From an uncultured Clostridia bacterium (GTDB taxonomy: Bacteria > Bacillota > Clostridia > Oscillospirales > Ruminococcaceae): DNA of 58,206 nucleotides. The notes under the pieces were generated by a model that was given only the letters and a program-made list of their open reading frames with translations, was not told the DNA's origin and ran no database searches. Where the stretch lies: NCBI GenBank assembly GCA_947588775.1, contig CANPZQ010000001.1, positions 1 through 58,206 of the forward strand, in the 5' to 3' direction. Made by a program: the position numbers and the translations under genes. Shown in pieces: positions 5,390 to 58,060 of the stretch (its first letter is position 1; every line of letters begins with the position of its first letter).

Positions 5390-5471
5390 GCGCGGCGAAG
5401 GGGGCGGGGGGGGGGGGTGGGTGGCGGGCAGTGGCTTTGGCGGCCGCAGAGAGCAGCCCCCTTCGCCGCGC
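5390..5471 (+). repeat. hairpin/G-core repeat unit U1
   Basis: 16-nt arms gcgcggcgaagggggc / gcccccttcgccgcgc are exact reverse complements; G-rich interior with a G12 run (5406-5417) and GGGTGGGTGGCGGGC. Confidence 0.85.
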
Positions 5472-5596
5472 GGCGGACAGCGCAAGACTTAGATGGAAGC
5501 AGGAGCTTGAGTAAAAAGGCGAAAATTTTTGCAAAGCTCCGTTATGTGCACTTCTATCCTCTAACCCTCTAACGCTCCAACCTCTAAAAGCCCAAC

Positions 5597-5644
5597 CCTC
5601 ACCCGTCCCCGCTCAGCCCCGCAAAGGGGGCTTCGGGGGACGGG
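5597..5644 (+). repeat. nested-hairpin module B, copy 1
   Basis: cctcacccgtccccgctcagccccgcaaagggggcttcgggggacggg; near-identical to the reverse complement of 14403-14445. Confidence 0.8.
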
Positions 5645-5702
5645 ATTCGGCTTGGGCCGGGGGGTTGGGCGCGCGGAGTGTTCGGGTTTCCTGCGCAACC
5701 CC

Positions 5703-5787
5703 GGCGCGGCGAATGGGGCTAATTTCCTGCGCCCACCCACCCGCCCTCCAAGGCTTCCATCTTTTTTCCCGCCCCATTCGCCGCGCC
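5703..5787 (-). repeat. hairpin/G-core repeat unit U2
   Basis: arms ggcgcggcgaatgggg / ccccattcgccgcgcc exact complements; interior tttcctgcgcccacccacccgccc (G-core on minus strand). Confidence 0.85.
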
Positions 5788-14402: not shown

Positions 14403-14445
14403 CCCGTCCCCCGAAGCCCAACGGGCTGAGCGGGGATGGGTGAGG
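14403..14445 (-). repeat. nested-hairpin module B, copy 2 (inverted relative to 5597-5644)
   Basis: reverse complement reads cctcacccatccccgctcagcccgttgggcttcgggggacggg. Confidence 0.8.
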
Positions 14446-14672
14446 AACGAATCCGGTAAGAGCCGCAGAGTTCAGAAGTCAGAAAACAGACGGAAAGAGC
14501 CCGAAAATACCCGAAATTCGGTACCCGCCCCGCCATCTCCCCTCATTCATCCCAAATCCCCCATTCCCCGATTTACTCTCAACAGCCCGCCGCCCGATTT
14601 TGCAGGCGGCAGGCCGTGAGCGTTGATTTTTTGCCGAATTCCGGCTCAAATACAAAACTTTCGGATTTCAGA

Positions 14673-28691: not shown

Positions 28692-30656
28692 TTAGTGCTT
28701 CTTGGAAGCAACGGCAGCAGCCGCAGCTACGAGCATCGGGAGAACGGCGAGAGCAACGCCGGTCTTCGGATTCTCTTCCTTAGCAGGCTCTTCGGTGTCG
28801 CCGAGGTTGACGGTGTCGTCGCCTTCGTCGTCGCCCTGCTGCTCAGTGGTGTCGGTAGGAGTATCGATGGTCTCGCCGCCAACTTCTTCAGCAGCCTCGG
28901 GGGTCTTGATTACGAGCTTAACGCCGGCAGTAGCCTGAACGGTAGCCTGAGCGTAACGAGTGCCGTTGATGTTACCCATGTCAGCACCGGTGTAAGCAGC
29001 TTCGCCGCAGCCGGTGAGGTCGGCAGAAGAATCGAAGAGGTAGGTCTTGATAGTAGTGCCGGCAGGGATAGCAGTGTTGTACTGTACGATGTGAGCCCAA
29101 GCTCCACCGGCAGCAGCGAGGTAATCCTTACCGCTGATGATGAGCGAGCCGTCGCTGGTCTGAGTGCAGTTAGTGCCGGGGATAAGCTCAACGCGTCCCT
29201 CGACGCCGGCACCCTGAAGGGAGAGTTTTACGCCACTCGGAACACCGGTAACAACGATTCTGTCGGTTTCGGCAATGCCGTCGATACCAACGCCGAATCC
29301 GCCGGATTCAAAGACAGCAGTCCAATCCCAAACGCCGGTAGCGACATCAAAGGTCTTGGTAGCAACCTTGGTGGCGTTGCCATTAGCGTCCTTCTTTACA
29401 TTGGCTTCCGGGAACGGAACGGAGCCGGAAACAAGTCCTCTACCGGCCTTACCGGAACGAGCGTAGTTGACCTTAGCGTTATCGAAGTAAGCAGGGGTCG
29501 GGTCAGCGTTGTAGCCGTGCTCGGGCCAGCTAAGTCTGCCAAGGGAGCCGGAACCGCCGGGAACCTTAGAGCCGTCGACGGTGAGGTAGTCCTTCATAAC
29601 GGTGGAGTTGAAGAGGGTGATGTCCTCGAAGATAACGAATTCATAGTTGAAGGTGCCATAGAGCTTATCGTAGAGAAGAGTTGCAGGAACATCGAAAACG
29701 AGTTCACTTGCAGTGCCGTCGAGCGGATAATCGTCTACGAAGGTTCTCTGGTCCTTATACTGCCACCAGTTGCCGAGGTTGTACTGGAAAGTAGAATCGG
29801 CGTAGTAGGTGGAGTTGTTGCGGTTAGCGTAAAGGGTGTAGGTAGCCTGACCAACGAGGTTGGTGGTAAGCGGAACTACGAGCTGTACGGTGTAGCCGTT
29901 CTCAGCAGCTTCTCTGATGTTCTTGCGGTTCTCAAGGGTGTGATCCCAAGTGAACGGAACGCGAGAAGAGTTAGAAGCGTCGGTGGACCACTCGTCAGTT
30001 ACGAAGTCGTAAGCGGCAGGAACAGGATTGGTGTCCTTGTTGGCGTTGATAATCCAGTTGCAAGCGTAGGAAACGGAGCCGTCAAGAGGCTTATCCTCGC
30101 CCTGCTTGTACCAACGGGCCTGCATCTCGGTGTCGTAGTAGTTGCCGCCGTTCTTAGCAGCAAAGATTCCTACAGGAATATCCTTGTCGCCGTCCATAGC
30201 CATCTCGCAGACGAGGTGGATGCTGGACCACTGGTTGAAGCTGGTGCTCTGCGGAATAGCAGTGTCGGTGCCGTTGAAGCTATGCGGCAGGTAAGAGAAG
30301 TAGATTACAGCAGTCTGAACTTCGCTGCCGTTAGTGTTCTTAACGGGGGTGCTGTTGAGGGAATAGAGCATACCGTCAACGCTGATGCTCCACTTCGCGC
30401 TGGTTGCGCTTACATCGGGGCCCCAGTTAATAGGAAGGTCGATTTCGATGCGGTCGCCCGCGTTAAGGTAGCCGTACATACCGTATACAGGAATGTCGAA
30501 GGTTACCTGGTAAGACGACTTCTTTGAACCGCCTCTGTTAGACCAATCGCTCGCGCTGGAGAACAGCGGAACTTCATAGTCGGCGAAAGCGGTAATCGCC
30601 ATTGCAGAAAGGGCGATTGTGACTGCCAGAACGACAGCCAAAATTTTCTTTGCCAT
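28692..30656 (-). CDS. secreted cell-surface protein with C-terminal NPKTG sorting signal, no recognisable catalytic domain
   Basis: signal peptide ..AITAFA/DYEV; C-terminus EENPKTG + hydrophobic stretch + KKH; strong RBS AAGGAGG; visibly different synonymous codon choice from neighbouring genes. Confidence 0.7.
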   Translation of the reverse strand: MAKKILAVVLAVTIALSAMAITAFADYEVPLFSSASDWSNRGGSKKSSYQVTFDIPVYGMYGYLNAGDRIEIDLPINWGPDVSATSAKWSISVDGMLYSLNSTPVKNTNGSEVQTAVIYFSYLPHSFNGTDTAIPQSTSFNQWSSIHLVCEMAMDGDKDIPVGIFAAKNGGNYYDTEMQARWYKQGEDKPLDGSVSYACNWIINANKDTNPVPAAYDFVTDEWSTDASNSSRVPFTWDHTLENRKNIREAAENGYTVQLVVPLTTNLVGQATYTLYANRNNSTYYADSTFQYNLGNWWQYKDQRTFVDDYPLDGTASELVFDVPATLLYDKLYGTFNYEFVIFEDITLFNSTVMKDYLTVDGSKVPGGSGSLGRLSWPEHGYNADPTPAYFDNAKVNYARSGKAGRGLVSGSVPFPEANVKKDANGNATKVATKTFDVATGVWDWTAVFESGGFGVGIDGIAETDRIVVTGVPSGVKLSLQGAGVEGRVELIPGTNCTQTSDGSLIISGKDYLAAAGGAWAHIVQYNTAIPAGTTIKTYLFDSSADLTGCGEAAYTGADMGNINGTRYAQATVQATAGVKLVIKTPEAAEEVGGETIDTPTDTTEQQGDDEGDDTVNLGDTEEPAKEENPKTGVALAVLPMLVAAAAAVASKKH

Positions 30657-38606: not shown

Positions 38607-38965
38607 TTTATATCCTCCTTCTGATAGATTGCGGACTCGGGGCGCAGCCGCCTTTTGTCCGTAAATAAAAAGCACAGTAAGGCCGAAACGGCGGTTCCGG
38701 CCTTTAGGTCAGCGCATTCCTATATATTATAGTCTTGTCCGCAAAAAAAGTCAATAGAAAAACCAAAAAAATCCGGGGATTGGGGAATTTTTTGGGGGCG
38801 CAGGGTTATGAAGCGGGGAGAGAGGGGGCGAAGCCCGGCCGGCCCGGAGGGACGGCCCCCGCGGCCGGAGGCCGCGGGCGTCGGCCGCGTATGCGGCCGA
38901 CAGGGGCTTCGCCCTAAGCCCCCGCATTTTGCCGAGGCCGGGTAAGAGCCGCCGCCAAAGCCCGC

Positions 38966-41182: not shown

Positions 41183-41211
41183 TTGACAAGTGCGGCGTTA
41201 TGTGCTATTAT
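41183..41211 (+). promoter_or_regulatory. sigma-A type promoter divergent from glyQS
   Basis: TTGACA 41183-41188, 17 nt, TATTAT 41206-41211. Confidence 0.55.
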
Positions 41212-41217
41212 AATTTC

Positions 41218-41335
41218 GCGGAAAGGAAAACCGGCCGAATTGCGCCGCCTTTCGCGTATGATTCACGCCATCTCCTAATTGTATAAACCACTTCTTGCAG
41301 CAAGAGCGTCCGGAAGGACGCTCTTGCTGTTTTTT
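41218..41335 (+). ncRNA. candidate ~118-nt small RNA (promoter-to-terminator unit with no ORF)
   Basis: 5' stem cgcggaaagg (41217-41226) / cctttcgcg (41248-41256); single-stranded aTCTCCTaa; terminator gcagcaagagcgtcc-ggaa-ggacgctcttgctg (41297-41329) plus TTTTTT 41330-41335. Confidence 0.45.
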
Positions 41336-41650
41336 GTTGGGGGTGGGGGGATGTGAGGGAGGATTTATAGGGAGTGGCCGAAACGGACACATTTAAGTGA
41401 ATAACGTCTTGCGAAAAGTAGCAAGTATCGGTATATAATCAGACGTATAGCTTCTATAATGCGTTTGGCTTGGACACTCATGATTGTATACAAGCCGCTG
41501 TACAAATGGGGGAGGCCTGAACCGAATCCCACCCTCTCTCCGCCTGCGGAGTTTTAGCGAGGTTAAGGTTTGGGGAGCCCCCTCTCCCCAAGGGGAGGGG
41601 GAGCATAGCCTTGCCAAATATCGCCCTCCCCAACCTCTCCGCTGACCCCC

Positions 41651-41754: not shown

Positions 41755-41790
41755 CAAAAAAGCAGCCGCCCCATCAGCGACTGCCCTTTT
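41755..41790. terminator. bidirectional intrinsic terminator (end of the anti-sigma gene)
   Basis: gcagccgc (41762-41769) / gcgactgc (41777-41784) stem flanked by an A-run (41756-41761) and cccTTTTTT. Confidence 0.65.
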
Positions 41791-44896: not shown

Positions 44897-44925
44897 GGAA
44901 AAAGGGGGACGAGGCCCCTTTTTCC
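44897..44925. terminator. symmetric intrinsic terminator downstream of the feo operon and repeats U6/U7
   Basis: ggaaaaagggg (44897-44907) / cccctttttcc (44915-44925). Confidence 0.55.
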
Positions 44926-44970: not shown

Positions 44971-45051
44971 GCGCGGGGAAGGAGCGGGGGGAGGAGGGAA
45001 GGGTGGGGTGGGCGGGCGGGTGGGCGCAGGAAAGGAGCTCCTTCCCCGCGC
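44971..45051 (+). repeat. hairpin/G-core repeat unit U6
   Basis: arms gcgcggggaaggagc / gctccttccccgcgc exact complements; interior gggtggggtgggcgggcgggtgggcgcagg. Confidence 0.85.
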
Positions 45052-45117
45052 GGGGATTTAGCGGGAGCCCTTGTAGAGAGGAGCCTGCGAAGCCCGGGGC
45101 TTTGCGGCCCGTTGACC

Positions 45118-45200
45118 GGCGCGGGAGGCCTGCTCCCTTCGCGGCTTCCATGGGCTCCCGCGCCCCACCCTCCCACCCCTCCCCGCAGTCCTCCCGCGCC
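45118..45200 (-). repeat. hairpin/G-core repeat unit U7
   Basis: arms ggcgcgggaggcctgc / gcagtcctcccgcgcc (15 of 16 paired); interior ccccaccctcccacccctcccc. Confidence 0.8.
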
Positions 45201-45203
45201 TCC

Positions 45204-45386
45204 CTACCTCGCCTTCCCCGCCGCGCCCCCGCACTTTCCGTGCAGAGCGCAGCTCTCGCAGCCGCACCCGCAACCGCCCTTGCCGGATTTTTTATCCCGG
45301 CGGAGCGAAACAACTATCCAGACGACCGCCGCGATTAAAAGCACGGCCGCCACAATCGTCCCGAGGTTCTGAATAAGCCAATCCAT
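45204..45386 (-). CDS. FeoB-associated Cys-rich small membrane protein
   Basis: one TM then ..KKSGKGGCGCGCESCALHGKC; directly downstream of feoB. Confidence 0.7.
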   Translation of the reverse strand: MDWLIQNLGTIVAAVLLIAAVVWIVVSLRRDKKSGKGGCGCGCESCALHGKCGGAAGKAR

Positions 45387-48239: not shown

Positions 48240-48452
48240 TTAAACCATAATTTTCTGCGCCATTTCCTTTGAAAGGGCGACGCGGGATTCCTTTACCTTT
48301 ATAATCAAATTGCCGCTTATTTCGGAAATCGGCGTTACGCCGCCGCCCACGTTGAAGCCGAGGTCGGCGAGGTGTTTTTTGACGTCGGGCGAGCCGCCGA
48401 TTTTCTTGATAATCTGTTCGCGGCCGACGTCGGCATATGTCAGAGGAATCAT
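48240..48452 (-). CDS. feoA: FeoA family protein (second copy)
   Basis: 70 aa; ATG 48452 after AAAGGAGG; the track ORF N-terminal extension runs through repeats and was discarded. Confidence 0.8.
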   Translation of the reverse strand: MIPLTYADVGREQIIKKIGGSPDVKKHLADLGFNVGGGVTPISEISGNLIIKVKESRVALSKEMAQKIMV

Positions 48453-48486
48453 AAAACAAGCCTCCTTTTGGGGTTTTGGCGGGGCA

Positions 48487-48583
48487 GCGCGGGGAAGGAG
48501 CGGGGGGGAGAGAGAAAGGTGGGTGGGCGGGCGGGTGGGGGGGGGGGGGGGGGGGGCGCAGGAAAAGAGCTCCTTCCCCGCGC
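48487..48583 (+). repeat. hairpin/G-core repeat unit U8 (contains G20)
   Basis: arms gcgcggggaaggagc / gctccttccccgcgc exact complements; interior ggtgggtgggcgggcgggtG(20)cgcagg. Confidence 0.85.
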
Positions 48584-48650
48584 GGGGGCTTGCGCGGAAA
48601 ATTTCGTTCCGGCAGCCTGCGAAAGCCCGGGGCTTTGCGGCACTTTGACC

Positions 48651-48732
48651 GGCGCGGGAGGCCTGCTCCTTTCGCGGCTGCCGTAGGCTCCCGCGTCCCA
48701 CCCTCCCACCCCTCCCGCAGTCCTCCCGCGCC
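48651..48732 (-). repeat. hairpin/G-core repeat unit U9
   Basis: arms ggcgcgggaggcctgc / gcagtcctcccgcgcc (15 of 16 paired); near-copy of U7. Confidence 0.8.
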
Positions 48733-48752
48733 TTGTCTGTGCGCAGAAATCA

Positions 48753-48832
48753 GCGCGGCGGCGGAGCGTGGGGAAAGCGCGAAGCTTGGGCGGGCGGGTG
48801 GGTGGGCGCAGGGAGCAGCTCCTTCGCCGCGC
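48753..48832 (+). repeat. hairpin/G-core repeat unit U10 (arms imperfect)
   Basis: arms gcgcggcggcggagc / gctccttcgccgcgc (13 of 15 paired); interior gggcgggcgggtgggtgggcgcagg. Confidence 0.7.
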
Positions 48833-48872
48833 GTCCTCGGCGCACCCTTCGCGGGCTTTCAGCTGAGCCCCC

Positions 48873-48953
48873 GCGCGGCGCGGGGAGCTCCTTTCGCGGC
48901 TTTCATCGGCGCCCGGGTCCCACCCGCCCGCCCCACCGCTCCCCGCGCCGCGC
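48873..48953 (-). repeat. hairpin/G-core repeat unit U11
   Basis: arms gcgcggcgcggggagc / gctccccgcgccgcgc exact complements; interior cccacccgcccgcccc. Confidence 0.85.
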
Positions 48954-49028
48954 TTCTCCCCTGCCCCTTTTCTCCTCATACCTCTCTCCTCACACCCCAC
49001 CCGGTTAGCCCCTGCTAACTACAATTCT

Positions 49029-49056
49029 ATTTTATTCGATTTTATGCGTTTGTCAA
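49029..49056 (-). promoter_or_regulatory. candidate feo operon promoter
   Basis: minus strand TTGACA (49056-49051), 16 nt, TAAAAT (49034-49029); I saw no other promoter-like sequence between it and feoA. Confidence 0.4.
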
Positions 49057-49223
49057 TAGCTTTTATTCGCATTCCGGCAAATTCGGAAGTGTGTACAAAA
49101 ACAGTTAGCCGCAGCTAACTTCAATTGGGTAAAAAGACAATGTGAATCCGGCGGCACTGCATACATTGTTATAACTGTCATATTCTCGCCTTTTTTGGCA
49201 GTATCAAATTTTTGTATCAAAAC

Positions 49224-49249
49224 GCCGGAGCACACCCGCATGCTCCGGC
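49224..49249 (-). terminator. hairpin terminator after the CNNM/CorC gene
   Basis: gccggagca / tgctccggc stem; short T-tract (gTTTTg) on the minus strand. Confidence 0.5.
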
Positions 49250-50628: not shown

Positions 50629-50657
50629 AGTATAGCACAAGAATAGAGGGATGTCAA
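50629..50657 (-). promoter_or_regulatory. candidate promoter of the CNNM/CorC gene
   Basis: minus strand TTGACA (50657-50652), 17 nt, TATACT (50634-50629). Confidence 0.55.
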
Positions 50658-50811
50658 GGGGTGGGGAGGGGGGCGGTGCGTCCATTCCGCCCGCAATATC
50701 CCAGTATTTAAATCTGCCACCAAAGTGACGCCTTGTAATTCTGATTTCCGACTTCTGACTTCTGCCCTCTTGATGTGGCCGCTTCGGCCACATCTTAATC
50801 CTCCCCTCCCC

Positions 50812-56904: not shown

Positions 56905-56937
56905 TTCGGGGAAGCTGTGGGAAAATGATAAAGAAAG

Positions 56938-56963
56938 GCACCTCCGTTTGGGGGTGCTTTTTT
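56938..56963 (+). terminator. intrinsic terminator after the APKTG protein gene
   Basis: gcacc (56938-56942) / ggtgc (56953-56957) plus TTTTTT 56958-56963. Confidence 0.75.
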
Positions 56964-57004
56964 GTGGGGGTGGGCGATGGGGGTGTTTTGGGTGCGATTT
57001 GACC

Positions 57005-57087
57005 GCGCGGCGGAAAAAGCTGCTTTCTGCGCCCCACCCGCCCGCCCATGAAGATTTCGCGCTATTTCCCCGCTTTTTCCGCCGCGC
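57005..57087 (-). repeat. hairpin/G-core repeat unit U12
   Basis: arms gcgcggcggaaaaagc / gctttttccgccgcgc (identical to the U3 arms); interior tttctgcgccccacccgcccgccc. Confidence 0.85.
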
Positions 57088-57109
57088 TTCTCTCGTTACT
57101 GCCATCGCA

Positions 57110-57193
57110 GGCGCGGCAAATGGGGCGGGAGGTCAGCGGGAAACCTTAGCGGGCGGGCGGGTGGGCGCAGGCACCAGCCCCATTTGCCGCGCC
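57110..57193 (+). repeat. hairpin/G-core repeat unit U13
   Basis: arms ggcgcggcaaatgggg / ccccatttgccgcgcc exact complements; interior gcgggcgggcgggtgggcgcagg. Confidence 0.85.
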
Positions 57194-57301
57194 GTCCTCA
57201 CCCGCAAAGCCCCGCCCCTCCATCAACCACCCCCGCGCCCTGCCATACAAAAAATCCCCCCGCCGGCTCCGCTGCCGACGGGGGACGCTTTTGCGAATCC
57301 C

Positions 57302-57874
57302 TTAAATCTGCTTTGCAAGCACTCTCGTGCGGTAGTAGGGGACCGCGGCGAAGGTGCCGAGGATAATCAGGTCGATTATCATTACGGCGATTACGAGAAT
57401 GCCGTTCAGGAACATCGACCAGAGCCATTCGTCGGAAATCGGGAGGCCAATCATCGCGGACATGCCGGAAAATTCTGCGGGCATGTACTCGCCCCAGAGG
57501 AGGCCGCCCGAGAGGGTGAGCGAAACCCATCTTCCGAACGAGCCGAGCATCGTTCCCCAGAGCCAGCCGAGCTTCTTTCCGGCCGCAAAGCCGCAGAGGA
57601 AGATGAGGGTGTAGGCGACGACGTAGTCAAGAAGCATTGACTGCCAGCTGATTGAGATGCCGCCGCCGAGGACATACTGCAAAACGCCGTTCACGAAGCA
57701 GCAGAGCAGGCTGTACTTCGGTCCCCAGCGCAGGCAGTAGATTAGAATCGGAACCAGCGCGAAGTCGATTGAGCCGCCGAGCGGGAAGCGGTAGAGGCGG
57801 ATGTAGCCGAGGACGGTCGCAATCGCAATCATGATTGCGCCCTCGACGAGTGCCAGAAGCTTTTTGTTTTTCAC
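57302..57874 (-). CDS. thiT: ECF-transporter S component, thiamine-specific (ThiT-like)
   Basis: 190 aa, 6 TM, GTG start; directly downstream of a TPP riboswitch. Confidence 0.75.
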   Translation of the reverse strand: MKNKKLLALVEGAIMIAIATVLGYIRLYRFPLGGSIDFALVPILIYCLRWGPKYSLLCCFVNGVLQYVLGGGISISWQSMLLDYVVAYTLIFLCGFAAGKKLGWLWGTMLGSFGRWVSLTLSGGLLWGEYMPAEFSGMSAMIGLPISDEWLWSMFLNGILVIAVMIIDLIILGTFAAVPYYRTRVLAKQI

Positions 57875-57963
57875 GGAAATAACCGTCCTTTCTTAATTCG
57901 GGCATAAAAAACGCCCTGAAATGGTGTCATTCCTGAGCGAAATTAACGGTAATGAAGCAAAAA

Positions 57964-58048
57964 CTCCCTACGTCGGTATTAACCGCATCAGGTCATAGGG
58001 TCAAAGAGAACATCTTTATCTCAACACGTCGCTGCGTGTCCCCCTGTT
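57964..58048 (-). promoter_or_regulatory. TPP (THI-box) riboswitch
   Basis: minus strand cagggggacacg..gtgttGAGAtaa..ACCCtatgACCTGATgcGGTTAATACCgaCGTAGGGAg matches the THI element consensus. Confidence 0.85.
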
Positions 58049-58060
58049 TTGACGAGGAAT

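Follow-up and report, generated by a model that had tools for sequence, protein, structure and literature searches.

What are the thirteen G-rich hairpin repeats that lie between the genes of a 58,206-nucleotide stretch of DNA from an uncultured Clostridia bacterium (Ruminococcaceae; contig CANPZQ010000001.1; the whole stretch is referred to here as the window), and how did they come to be there? An earlier note had described them as an extragenic hairpin repeat family that carries a G-quadruplex (G4) motif in the loop and is organized like the REP/BIME arrays of Escherichia coli. Our preferred answer, to which we assign a probability of about 0.6, is that the units are a lineage-specific family of non-autonomous mobile DNA that depends on its folded structure and is functionally analogous to REP, BIME, and REPIN elements. 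This answer builds on a covarying hairpin, a conserved G4 motif, extragenic siting, insertion with respect to related genomes, and the duplication of dimers; from these we infer transposition, an enzyme that drives it, folding of the G4, and effects on mRNA.

All 13 units (u1 to u13) were found on the strands and at the coordinates that had been reported for them, within 1 to 3 nt. They are 80 to 97 nt long (typically about 82 bases) and occupy six intergenic regions, a density of one unit per 4.5 kb (13 in 58 kb). When up to one mismatch was permitted, the core sequence GGGNGGGNGGGNGGG gave 46 overlapping matches compared to 0.42 expected from shuffled sequence; the exact matches were all inside the 13 units, and the sole match elsewhere, at position 50659, had one mismatch. 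A detector based on the foot of the stem (GCGCGG...CCGCGC plus at least 11 paired bases) recovered 12 of the 13 units and gave zero other matches in the window. A search that is blind to the motif, for perfect inverted repeats that are 12 bp or longer and separated by 30 to 90 nt, gave 10 hits, each of them a unit, versus 0.2 in shuffles. Finally, a covariance model built from the ten units that share one loop layout (type A, described below) and run with filters off recovered the 13 units and no further copy in the window.

None of the 1079 unit bases is within an accepted gene. Given that 14% of the DNA is intergenic, the probability that all six clusters would be intergenic is about 4 to 8 × 10−6. 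The units themselves lack coding capacity, and the pseudo-proteins that had been attributed to them are real translations of open reading frames (ORFs), GRAGGWAQG and RPPTRPP. The description of the units as an extragenic hairpin repeat family was thus borne out by the detector, the covariance model, the intergenic test, and the covariation of the stem considered below.

The predicted folds of the units all have a terminal stem, with minimum free energies of -37 to -59.5 kcal/mol. Uninterrupted stems are 8 to 16 bp and become 14 to 18 bp when a single mismatch or bulge or the outward GGGG/CCCC extension is counted. The loops are 49 to 53 nt, except that the loop of u8 is 67 nt because of a run of 22 G residues. 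Two loop layouts were distinguished. In type A (u1 to u6, u8, u10, u12, and u13), about 22 nt precede the G-core, which is usually followed by CGCAG and then by about 7 nt. In type B (u7, u9, and u11), the core directly follows the 5' arm and precedes about 30 nt that include a CGCGG..CCGCG mini-helix. CGCAG follows the core in 7 of the 10 type A units. Total unit length is alike in both types (80 to 83 nt). The units are listed below, with covariance model scores in bits.

5390 to 5471, plus strand: u1, type A; 16-bp stem GCGCGGCGAAGGGGGC; G12 run and degenerate core; 59 bits
5703 to 5787, minus strand: u2, type A, G..C-closed; head-to-head partner of u3; 95.5 bits
5809 to 5891, plus strand: u3, type A, A..G-closed; subtype shared with u12; 84.4 bits
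14303 to 14389, plus strand: u4, type A; 10-bp foot stem with outward GGGG/CCCC extension; 53.2 bits
41651 to 41735, minus strand: u5, type A; 72.4 bits
44971 to 45051, plus strand: u6, type A, in the 3' untranslated region (UTR) of feo; tail-to-tail partner of u7; 69.4 bits
45118 to 45200, minus strand: u7, type B; 17.7 bits
48487 to 48583, plus strand: u8, type A with G22 run; about 20 nt upstream of the feoA ribosome-binding site; 36.7 bits
48651 to 48732, minus strand: u9, type B; 93% identical to the u7 region
48753 to 48832, plus strand: u10, type A; head-to-head with u9 across a 21-nt spacer; 73.4 bits
48873 to 48953, minus strand: u11, type B; perfect 16-bp stem; 32.8 bits
57005 to 57087, minus strand: u12, type A; subtype shared with u3; 88.6 bits
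57110 to 57193, plus strand: u13, type A, G..C-closed; subtype shared with u2; 85.9 bits

The 6-bp foot of the stem (GCGCGG/CCGCGC) and its top (GC/GC) do not change from unit to unit, whereas the eight intervening pairs do. Of the cells in the 16-pair stem of the ten type A units, 96.1% are paired, and 8 of the 16 pairs have changed on both sides (20 cells). This level of pairing and double change was reached by 0 of 500 shuffles, and controls in which the partner was slid were 40 to 57% paired. Because of the covariation, the 96.1% pairing, and the result with the shuffles, the structure of the stem is, on this sequence evidence, under selection. Only 1 of the 153 cells in the type A stems is G-U, and complementarity has therefore been kept on both strands, as would be expected for a constraint that acts at the level of DNA or independently of the strand. 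A fixed foot and top with a variable middle would fit recognition of shape plus a few bases, and not the sequence reading of a terminal inverted repeat.

The core in the loop is a short (GGGN)n tract of four to six runs, with linkers of one base (C, T, or A). The pattern (G3+N1)x3 G3+ is matched by 12 of the 13 units, representing both layouts. The runs in u1 are G5, G12, G3, GG, and G3, of which the last two are weaker. At the level of sequence, the canonical G4 motif that had been claimed for the loop is present in 13 of 13 units, and its folding is predicted. G4Hunter maxima are 1.2 to 3.5 across the units, and ViennaRNA with its G-quadruplex model (RNA parameters; energies are approximate) placed a three-layer G4 inside the stem in the minimum free energy fold of every unit. 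The G-runs are the sole loop feature that both layouts have in common, and the linkers drift. Conserved runs with drifting linkers would fit selection for a quadruplex, or for a binding site with a G3/C3 period, and the conservation of the runs across copies and layouts suggests that selection favors the quadruplex and not the sequence itself. The literature that we found contains no description of a covarying hairpin whose loop cages a complete intramolecular (G3N1)3G3 motif, conserved across two layouts and all copies.

Two homopolymer runs, G22 in u8 (48536 to 48557) and G12 in u1 (5405 to 5416), replace or extend the G-core, and either slippage of (GGGN)n or an artefact of sequencing or assembly may have produced them. 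The G22 run is about 85 nt upstream of the feoA start codon. More tracts of G- or C-runs (G4Hunter of at least 1.5) are present in intergenic DNA outside the units, at 5585 to 5679, 14518 to 14582, 38772 to 38833, 41324 to 41370, 50641 to 50687, 56946 to 56996, and 57192 to 57245. Several of these directly flank units, G-rich on one side and C-rich on the other. Conserved inverted repeats in the G- and C-rich flanks of the head-to-head dimers were also considered, and the alignment of the flanks was unconvincing.

For the arrangement of the units, the G strand was read from a 5' head to a 3' tail. All seven adjacent pairs are inverted; two of these pairs are duplicates, and about five independent inverted pairs remain when the duplicated dimers are allowed for (P of about 0.03). 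Closure of the units is by A...G in eight cases and by G...C in five, and six of the seven adjacent pairs combine one unit of each kind. The spacers of the three head-to-head pairs are 21 to 23 nt and unrelated in sequence, and the tail-to-tail spacers are 40, 67, 68, and 232 nt. The dimer at 44971 to 45200 resembles that at 48487 to 48732, with the spacer and type B stretch (45090 to 45183 versus 48623 to 48716) 93% identical over 94 nt, and the dimer at 5703 to 5891 matches the reverse complement of 57005 to 57193. Judging from these matches, the entity that has been duplicated is the whole inverted dimer and not the single unit.

Some spacers and flanks contain additional repeated elements:

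45087 to 45105, no strand assigned: palindrome GCAAAGCCCCGGGCTT, in the 67-nt tail-to-tail spacer between u6 and u7
48620 to 48638, no strand assigned: second copy of palindrome GCAAAGCCCCGGGCTT, in the 68-nt tail-to-tail spacer between u8 and u9
5597 to 5644, minus strand: accessory hairpin module H2 (CCCGTCCCCCGAAGCCC..GGGCTGAGCGGGGAYGGGTGAGG), on the 3' side of u2
14403 to 14445, plus strand: second copy of accessory hairpin module H2, on the 3' side of u4

H2 is a hairpin repeat of about 45 nt, and both of its copies are located 3' of a G..C-closed unit, a placement that suggests mosaic accessory modules like those of BIMEs. With its strict alternation, mixed closure, duplicated dimers, and mosaic modules, the organization can be called REP/BIME-like as an analogy, which is not proof of membership.

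Comparison with relatives suggested that the units spread within a single lineage. No record matched the FeoB protein encoded in the window exactly; its closest matches are at most 91 to 93% identical and come from uncultured Clostridia in ENA assemblies; the next tier, labeled Ruminococcus sp. or Clostridiales, is about 75% identical. In 12 related loci (191 kb, about 143 kb of it non-redundant) with FeoB 81 to 93% identical, neither the covariance model nor a G4 regular expression detected a unit, compared to about 30 expected at the density of the window. Short FeoB contigs of 3 to 5 kb (L043 and L044), which are possibly broken at repeats, contained no unit either. The burst of units is, as far as these loci indicate, lineage specific.

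Broader searches had the same outcome. Two specific patterns, which as a positive control find 6 and 5 units in the window, had 0 matches in JGI metagenomes and 0 in IMG/VR. A blastn search with a dimer found no match in PLSDB or INPHARED, and the six-frame pseudo-proteins of the units matched nothing among 5.8 billion proteins, even at E values of up to 10. Rfam in gathering mode did not match any unit, its only gathering-level hit in the window being a thiamine pyrophosphate (TPP) riboswitch; in E-value mode the units gave generic hairpin matches only, at 27 bits or less, far below threshold. A loose GCGCGG..core..CCGCGC pattern returned 30 loci from a genome collection, all of them rejected as chance matches in genomes of 64 to 76% GC with only 6 to 8 complementary terminal bases. 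The statement of the earlier note that this is not a described family is uncontradicted by Rfam, PLSDB, INPHARED, IMG/VR, the JGI metagenomes, and searches of the literature.

The relatives have other intergenic repeats, which the covariance model indicates are unrelated to the units (L035, 2953 to 3056; L043, 1050 to 1075, 1160 to 1270, and 1520 to 1630). They include a long hairpin in which GTCACCCCACCCCC arms enclose a CCCCCGCCCCTCGAGGGGCGGGGG palindrome, and a direct repeat of about 110 bp that precedes feo in L043. A palindrome in the window, CCCCCTCTCCCCAAGGGGAGGGGG at 41577 to 41601, is similar to the palindrome of the relatives.

The feo region made it possible to compare occupied and empty sites, because the relatives share the gene order feoA-feoA-feoB-feoB-associated-sigma factor. 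The features that delimit the insertions are as follows:

48240 to 48452, minus strand: feoA; its ribosome-binding site (48460 to 48468) is the downstream edge of the u8 to u11 insertion
49004 to 49119, minus strand: feo promoter region, with TTGACA-16-TAAAAT at 49056 to 49029; upstream edge of the u8 to u11 insertion
44906 to 44918, minus strand: intrinsic feo terminator, conserved in L031

The promoter is bracketed by two GTTAGC-N4-GCTAAC palindromes (49104 to 49119 and 49004 to 49019), which are also found upstream of feoA in L031, L032, L037, and L043 and are kept in all relatives examined. The downstream palindrome overlaps the predicted transcription start, and the two are probably repressor operators, perhaps metal responsive. 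L031 and L032 can be aligned with the window both over the promoter with its palindromes and again from the start codon of feoA on. Between these two stretches, positions 48453 to 49003 of the window (about 550 bp, u11 to u8) correspond to about 27 bp at the same place in L032 and L031. Because the conserved flanks align with so little between them in the relatives, the alignment places the four units as an insertion in the predicted 5' UTR of feoA.

At the other end of the operon, the stop codon of the FeoB-associated gene (45204) is followed 4 nt later by the start of u7, and u6 ends about 50 nt before the feo terminator. The segment with u7 and u6 is missing in L031, and by this alignment it is an insertion in the feo 3' UTR. 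The C terminus of the FeoB-associated protein (..CGGAAGKAR*, 45204 to 45230, minus strand) is longer than, and different from, that in L032. The sequence that encodes it, GCGCGGCGGGGAAGG, is similar to the arm of a unit, and a fragment of a unit may have supplied the last codons and the stop of this gene.

Elsewhere in the window, u5 is about 15 nt downstream of a hairpin and T-run that end a gene for a 732-amino-acid protein (read by eye; the terminator scan did not list it), and u12 and u13 are flanked by convergent terminators, of which the scan called one and the other was recognized by eye. According to the gene map, neither of the two divergent intergenic regions in the window contains a unit. 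Terminators called separately from the units are at 44906 to 44918, 49224 to 49249, and 57256 to 57285; two more were recognized by eye near 41760 to 41790 and 56935 to 56962.

These observations can be combined in a model in which the unit would be recognized and copied in a folded, single-stranded form. Recognition of this kind is suggested because a fixed foot is joined to a freely covarying stem, as for RAYT and IS200/IS605 Y1 transposases. The mobilizing enzyme would be specific for the hairpin, with its gene at another site in the genome; a Y1/HUH transposase of the RAYT or IS200/IS605 type is the most plausible candidate. New copies would land preferentially beside existing ones, which would generate inverted heterodimers with the fixed head-to-head spacing of 21 to 23 nt and then block-duplicated dimers. 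A G-quadruplex on the G strand would probably stabilize the extruded hairpin or form part of the recognition surface. G-tetraplexes have been proposed as RAYT recognition elements on some REPs (PMC4690160), and by analogy a role of the G4 in stabilization or recognition of the hairpin is plausible. Insertions would survive only outside genes, many of them in UTRs where they would be co-transcribed. Several units appear to be co-transcribed, and the stability of mRNA, readthrough, or translation is therefore likely to be affected secondarily; where very stable hairpins lie in UTRs, as in the feo iron-uptake operon, changes in mRNA decay, readthrough, and translation would be expected.

Another possibility is that the units are cis-acting structures that the host has selected and that spread by duplication or recombination. 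They could be mRNA 3'-end stabilizers or processing barriers, bidirectional terminators of the Rho or roadblock type (with C-rich loops as Rho-loading sites in the Rho variant), or sites for nucleoid or G4-binding proteins. The siting in UTRs is favorable to this possibility, with u7 and u6 between a stop codon and a terminator, u8 to u11 in the feoA leader, and u5 after a hairpin and T-run, as are the G-runs that are kept in every unit. In addition, the alternating orientation gives any transcript both G-rich and C-rich loops, and the predicted fold of the full feoA leader, in which G-rich and C-rich units pair mutually, is more stable than shuffles (z = -2.5); such mutual pairing could compete with local hairpins and quadruplexes. 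However, close relatives run the same operons without the units, and u12 and u13 are outside both of the transcripts whose terminators surround them. No unit is followed by a T-run, true terminators adjoin the units, and the units are in both orientations relative to transcription. Furthermore, duplication of dimer blocks to unrelated loci would still require a mechanism of mobility. Thus, selection by the host as the primary explanation seems unlikely. A host function could instead be secondary to mobility, which is the accepted view for REPs.

A further possibility, which we regard as unlikely, is that the hairpin-caged G4 is the functional heart of the unit and the unit a new kind of element. 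The unit would then be either a mobile element that needs a quadruplex-duplex junction as the structure recognized for its excision or integration, or a domesticated RNA or DNA module that determines the fate of transcripts, for example, those of feo, with four units in the leader and two in the trailer.

The units might also be classical miniature inverted-repeat transposable elements (MITEs), that is, deletion derivatives of an insertion sequence (IS) with arms of 15 to 17 bp that a DDE transposase binds as duplex terminal inverted repeats. The size of 80 to 97 bp, terminal inverted arms, extragenic location, lack of coding capacity, and lineage-specific abundance would fit this. However, there is no direct repeat or target-site duplication at any unit, the flanks being A...G or G...C and otherwise unrelated. 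The middles of the arms vary with compensating changes on the other arm, for which a DDE transposase that reads sequence would not select, and no IS with matching ends was found in the window, nor any match in PLSDB or INPHARED. A MITE origin is therefore improbable.

Although the G22 and G12 runs are typical of two-color chemistry or slippage, the 13 separate units with different, individually complementary arms, the conserved single-copy context, and the near-zero values from shuffles make it hardly credible that the family is an artefact of misassembly, poly-G sequencing noise, or chance G-rich low-complexity DNA, and only the lengths of those two runs are in doubt.

Several identities were rejected. 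Integron attC sites have R''/R' boxes (RYYYAAC/GTTRRRY) in one orientation, whereas the units have a GCGCGG/CCGCGC foot and alternate, with no cassette ORFs between them. The terminator scan did not call any unit as an intrinsic terminator. CRISPR repeats were considered and rejected as well.

The interpretation of the units as mobile DNA has to be weighed against a number of observations. The main uncertainty is that the whole case depends on 13 copies within a single 58-kb window; none of the collections searched yielded a copy from anywhere else. No transposase or RAYT is present among the approximately 40 genes of the window that were scanned against Pfam, a result that applies to the window only. 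The head-to-head spacers are constant in length and not in sequence, which adjacent independent insertions explain, and other processes might as well. The perfect arms could stem from intrastrand template switching rather than from selection. The copies are 10 to 20% divergent, and the burst, dated by this divergence, is therefore not very recent. At 80 to 97 nt, with a stem of 14 to 18 bp and a loop of about 50 nt, the units are 2 to 4 times longer than a REP, which is an imperfect palindrome of 20 to 40 bp. They also lack the GTAG tag; GGTC, CGTC, or GTCC is found 0 to 5 nt after the 3' foot in 7 of the 13 (u3, u5, u7, u9, u10, u12, and u13), several of which are related by descent. The units may thus be said to work like REP/BIME elements but to fail two features that define REPs, size and form on the one hand and the GTAG tag on the other.

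The genes of the window (about 54% GC) are ordinary chromosomal genes according to Pfam and Rfam scans, including those for ABC transporters, two-component systems, RNase Y, SecDF, ProRS, ThrRS, FeoAB, and a thiamine transporter with a TPP riboswitch. This riboswitch (57948 to 58055, minus strand; 68.6 bits, above the gathering score) is directly upstream of the gene for the ThiT-type energy-coupling factor (ECF) thiamine transporter (57302 to 57874, minus strand), whose terminator is at 57256 to 57285. A candidate small transcription unit is located between proS and u5 (41183 to 41340, plus strand). It has a near-consensus promoter with an extended -10 element (TTGACA-17-TG-TATTAT, 11/12) and, about 85 nt on, a terminator with a 15-bp stem and a T6 run, and it had no Rfam match. 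An ORF of 654 amino acids at 28692 to 30656 (minus strand) had no Pfam match and is overlapped over nearly all of its length by an ORF of 610 amino acids on the opposite strand (28695 to 30527, plus strand).

Almost everything known about extragenic palindromic repeats and their transposases comes from Proteobacteria. If the units are mobile, they would extend biology of the REP/REPIN type to uncultured gut Clostridia, and the 13 natural variants would be a test system for whether a G4 aids a hairpin-specific enzyme or shapes the fate of mRNA. Natural, repeated, and evolutionarily constrained examples of G-quadruplexes in bacteria are few. On a practical level, units of this kind fragment short-read assemblies and create spurious ORFs rich in G, P, and R in annotations.

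How do the units compare with known systems? RUP and Correia elements have defined terminal repeats and target duplications, and BOX is composed of boxA-B-C modules. To our knowledge, no BOX, RUP, SPRITE, or Correia element has a G4 core or covarying arms on a fixed foot. Pneumococcal BOX, RUP, and SPRITE (PMC3049150) and the Correia elements of Neisseria, stem-loop repeats of a MITE-like kind that occur in bacteria of low or moderate GC, are like the units in being about 100 bp, extragenic, co-transcribed, and modular and in being able to alter the expression of neighboring genes. The simple sequence repeats enriched in Xanthomonas and Nostoc (PMC4692102) are also repeated bacterial motifs capable of forming G4, but they are tandem arrays of heptamers, whereas the units are dispersed single motifs caged in hairpins. 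The G-tract REPs of Cardiobacterium hominis and Haemophilus parasuis (PMC4690160) share with the units G-tracts that are able to form a tetraplex besides, or instead of, a hairpin. In those REPs, the tetraplex is bimolecular and antiparallel, arises from two G4-tracts in the stem, and competes with the hairpin, whereas the intramolecular (G3N1)3G3 motif of the units is in the loop and compatible with the stem.

REPINs are similar to the units in that two inverted terminal segments and a spacer form one long hairpin, and in being non-autonomous and forming populations within a genome. Their size, about 70 to 110 nt, is similar as well. In a REPIN, the arms are themselves short REP palindromes and part of the spacer is paired, whereas the arms of the units are simple complementary strands around an open loop with a G4. 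REPINs were described as REP doublets that form hairpins in Pseudomonas and are mobilized by RAYTs (Bertels and Rainey 2011, PMC3116915).

The REP and BIME elements of E. coli and other Proteobacteria, including GTAG- and CGTC-tagged REPs, are treated by Di Nocera et al. (2013, PMC3733652). The host of the units differs in being a Firmicute (Clostridia), a group in which such families have hardly been described. REPs are extragenic and palindromic, lie mostly between convergent or co-directional genes, are absent from divergent intergenic regions, and are often co-transcribed in 3' UTRs, as appears to be the case for the units. The resemblance to REP families as described there (PMC3733652) extends to arrangement, with inverted head-to-head and tail-to-tail dimers, larger clusters, heterodimers of two types, spacers of 20 to 100 bp, and mosaic motifs.

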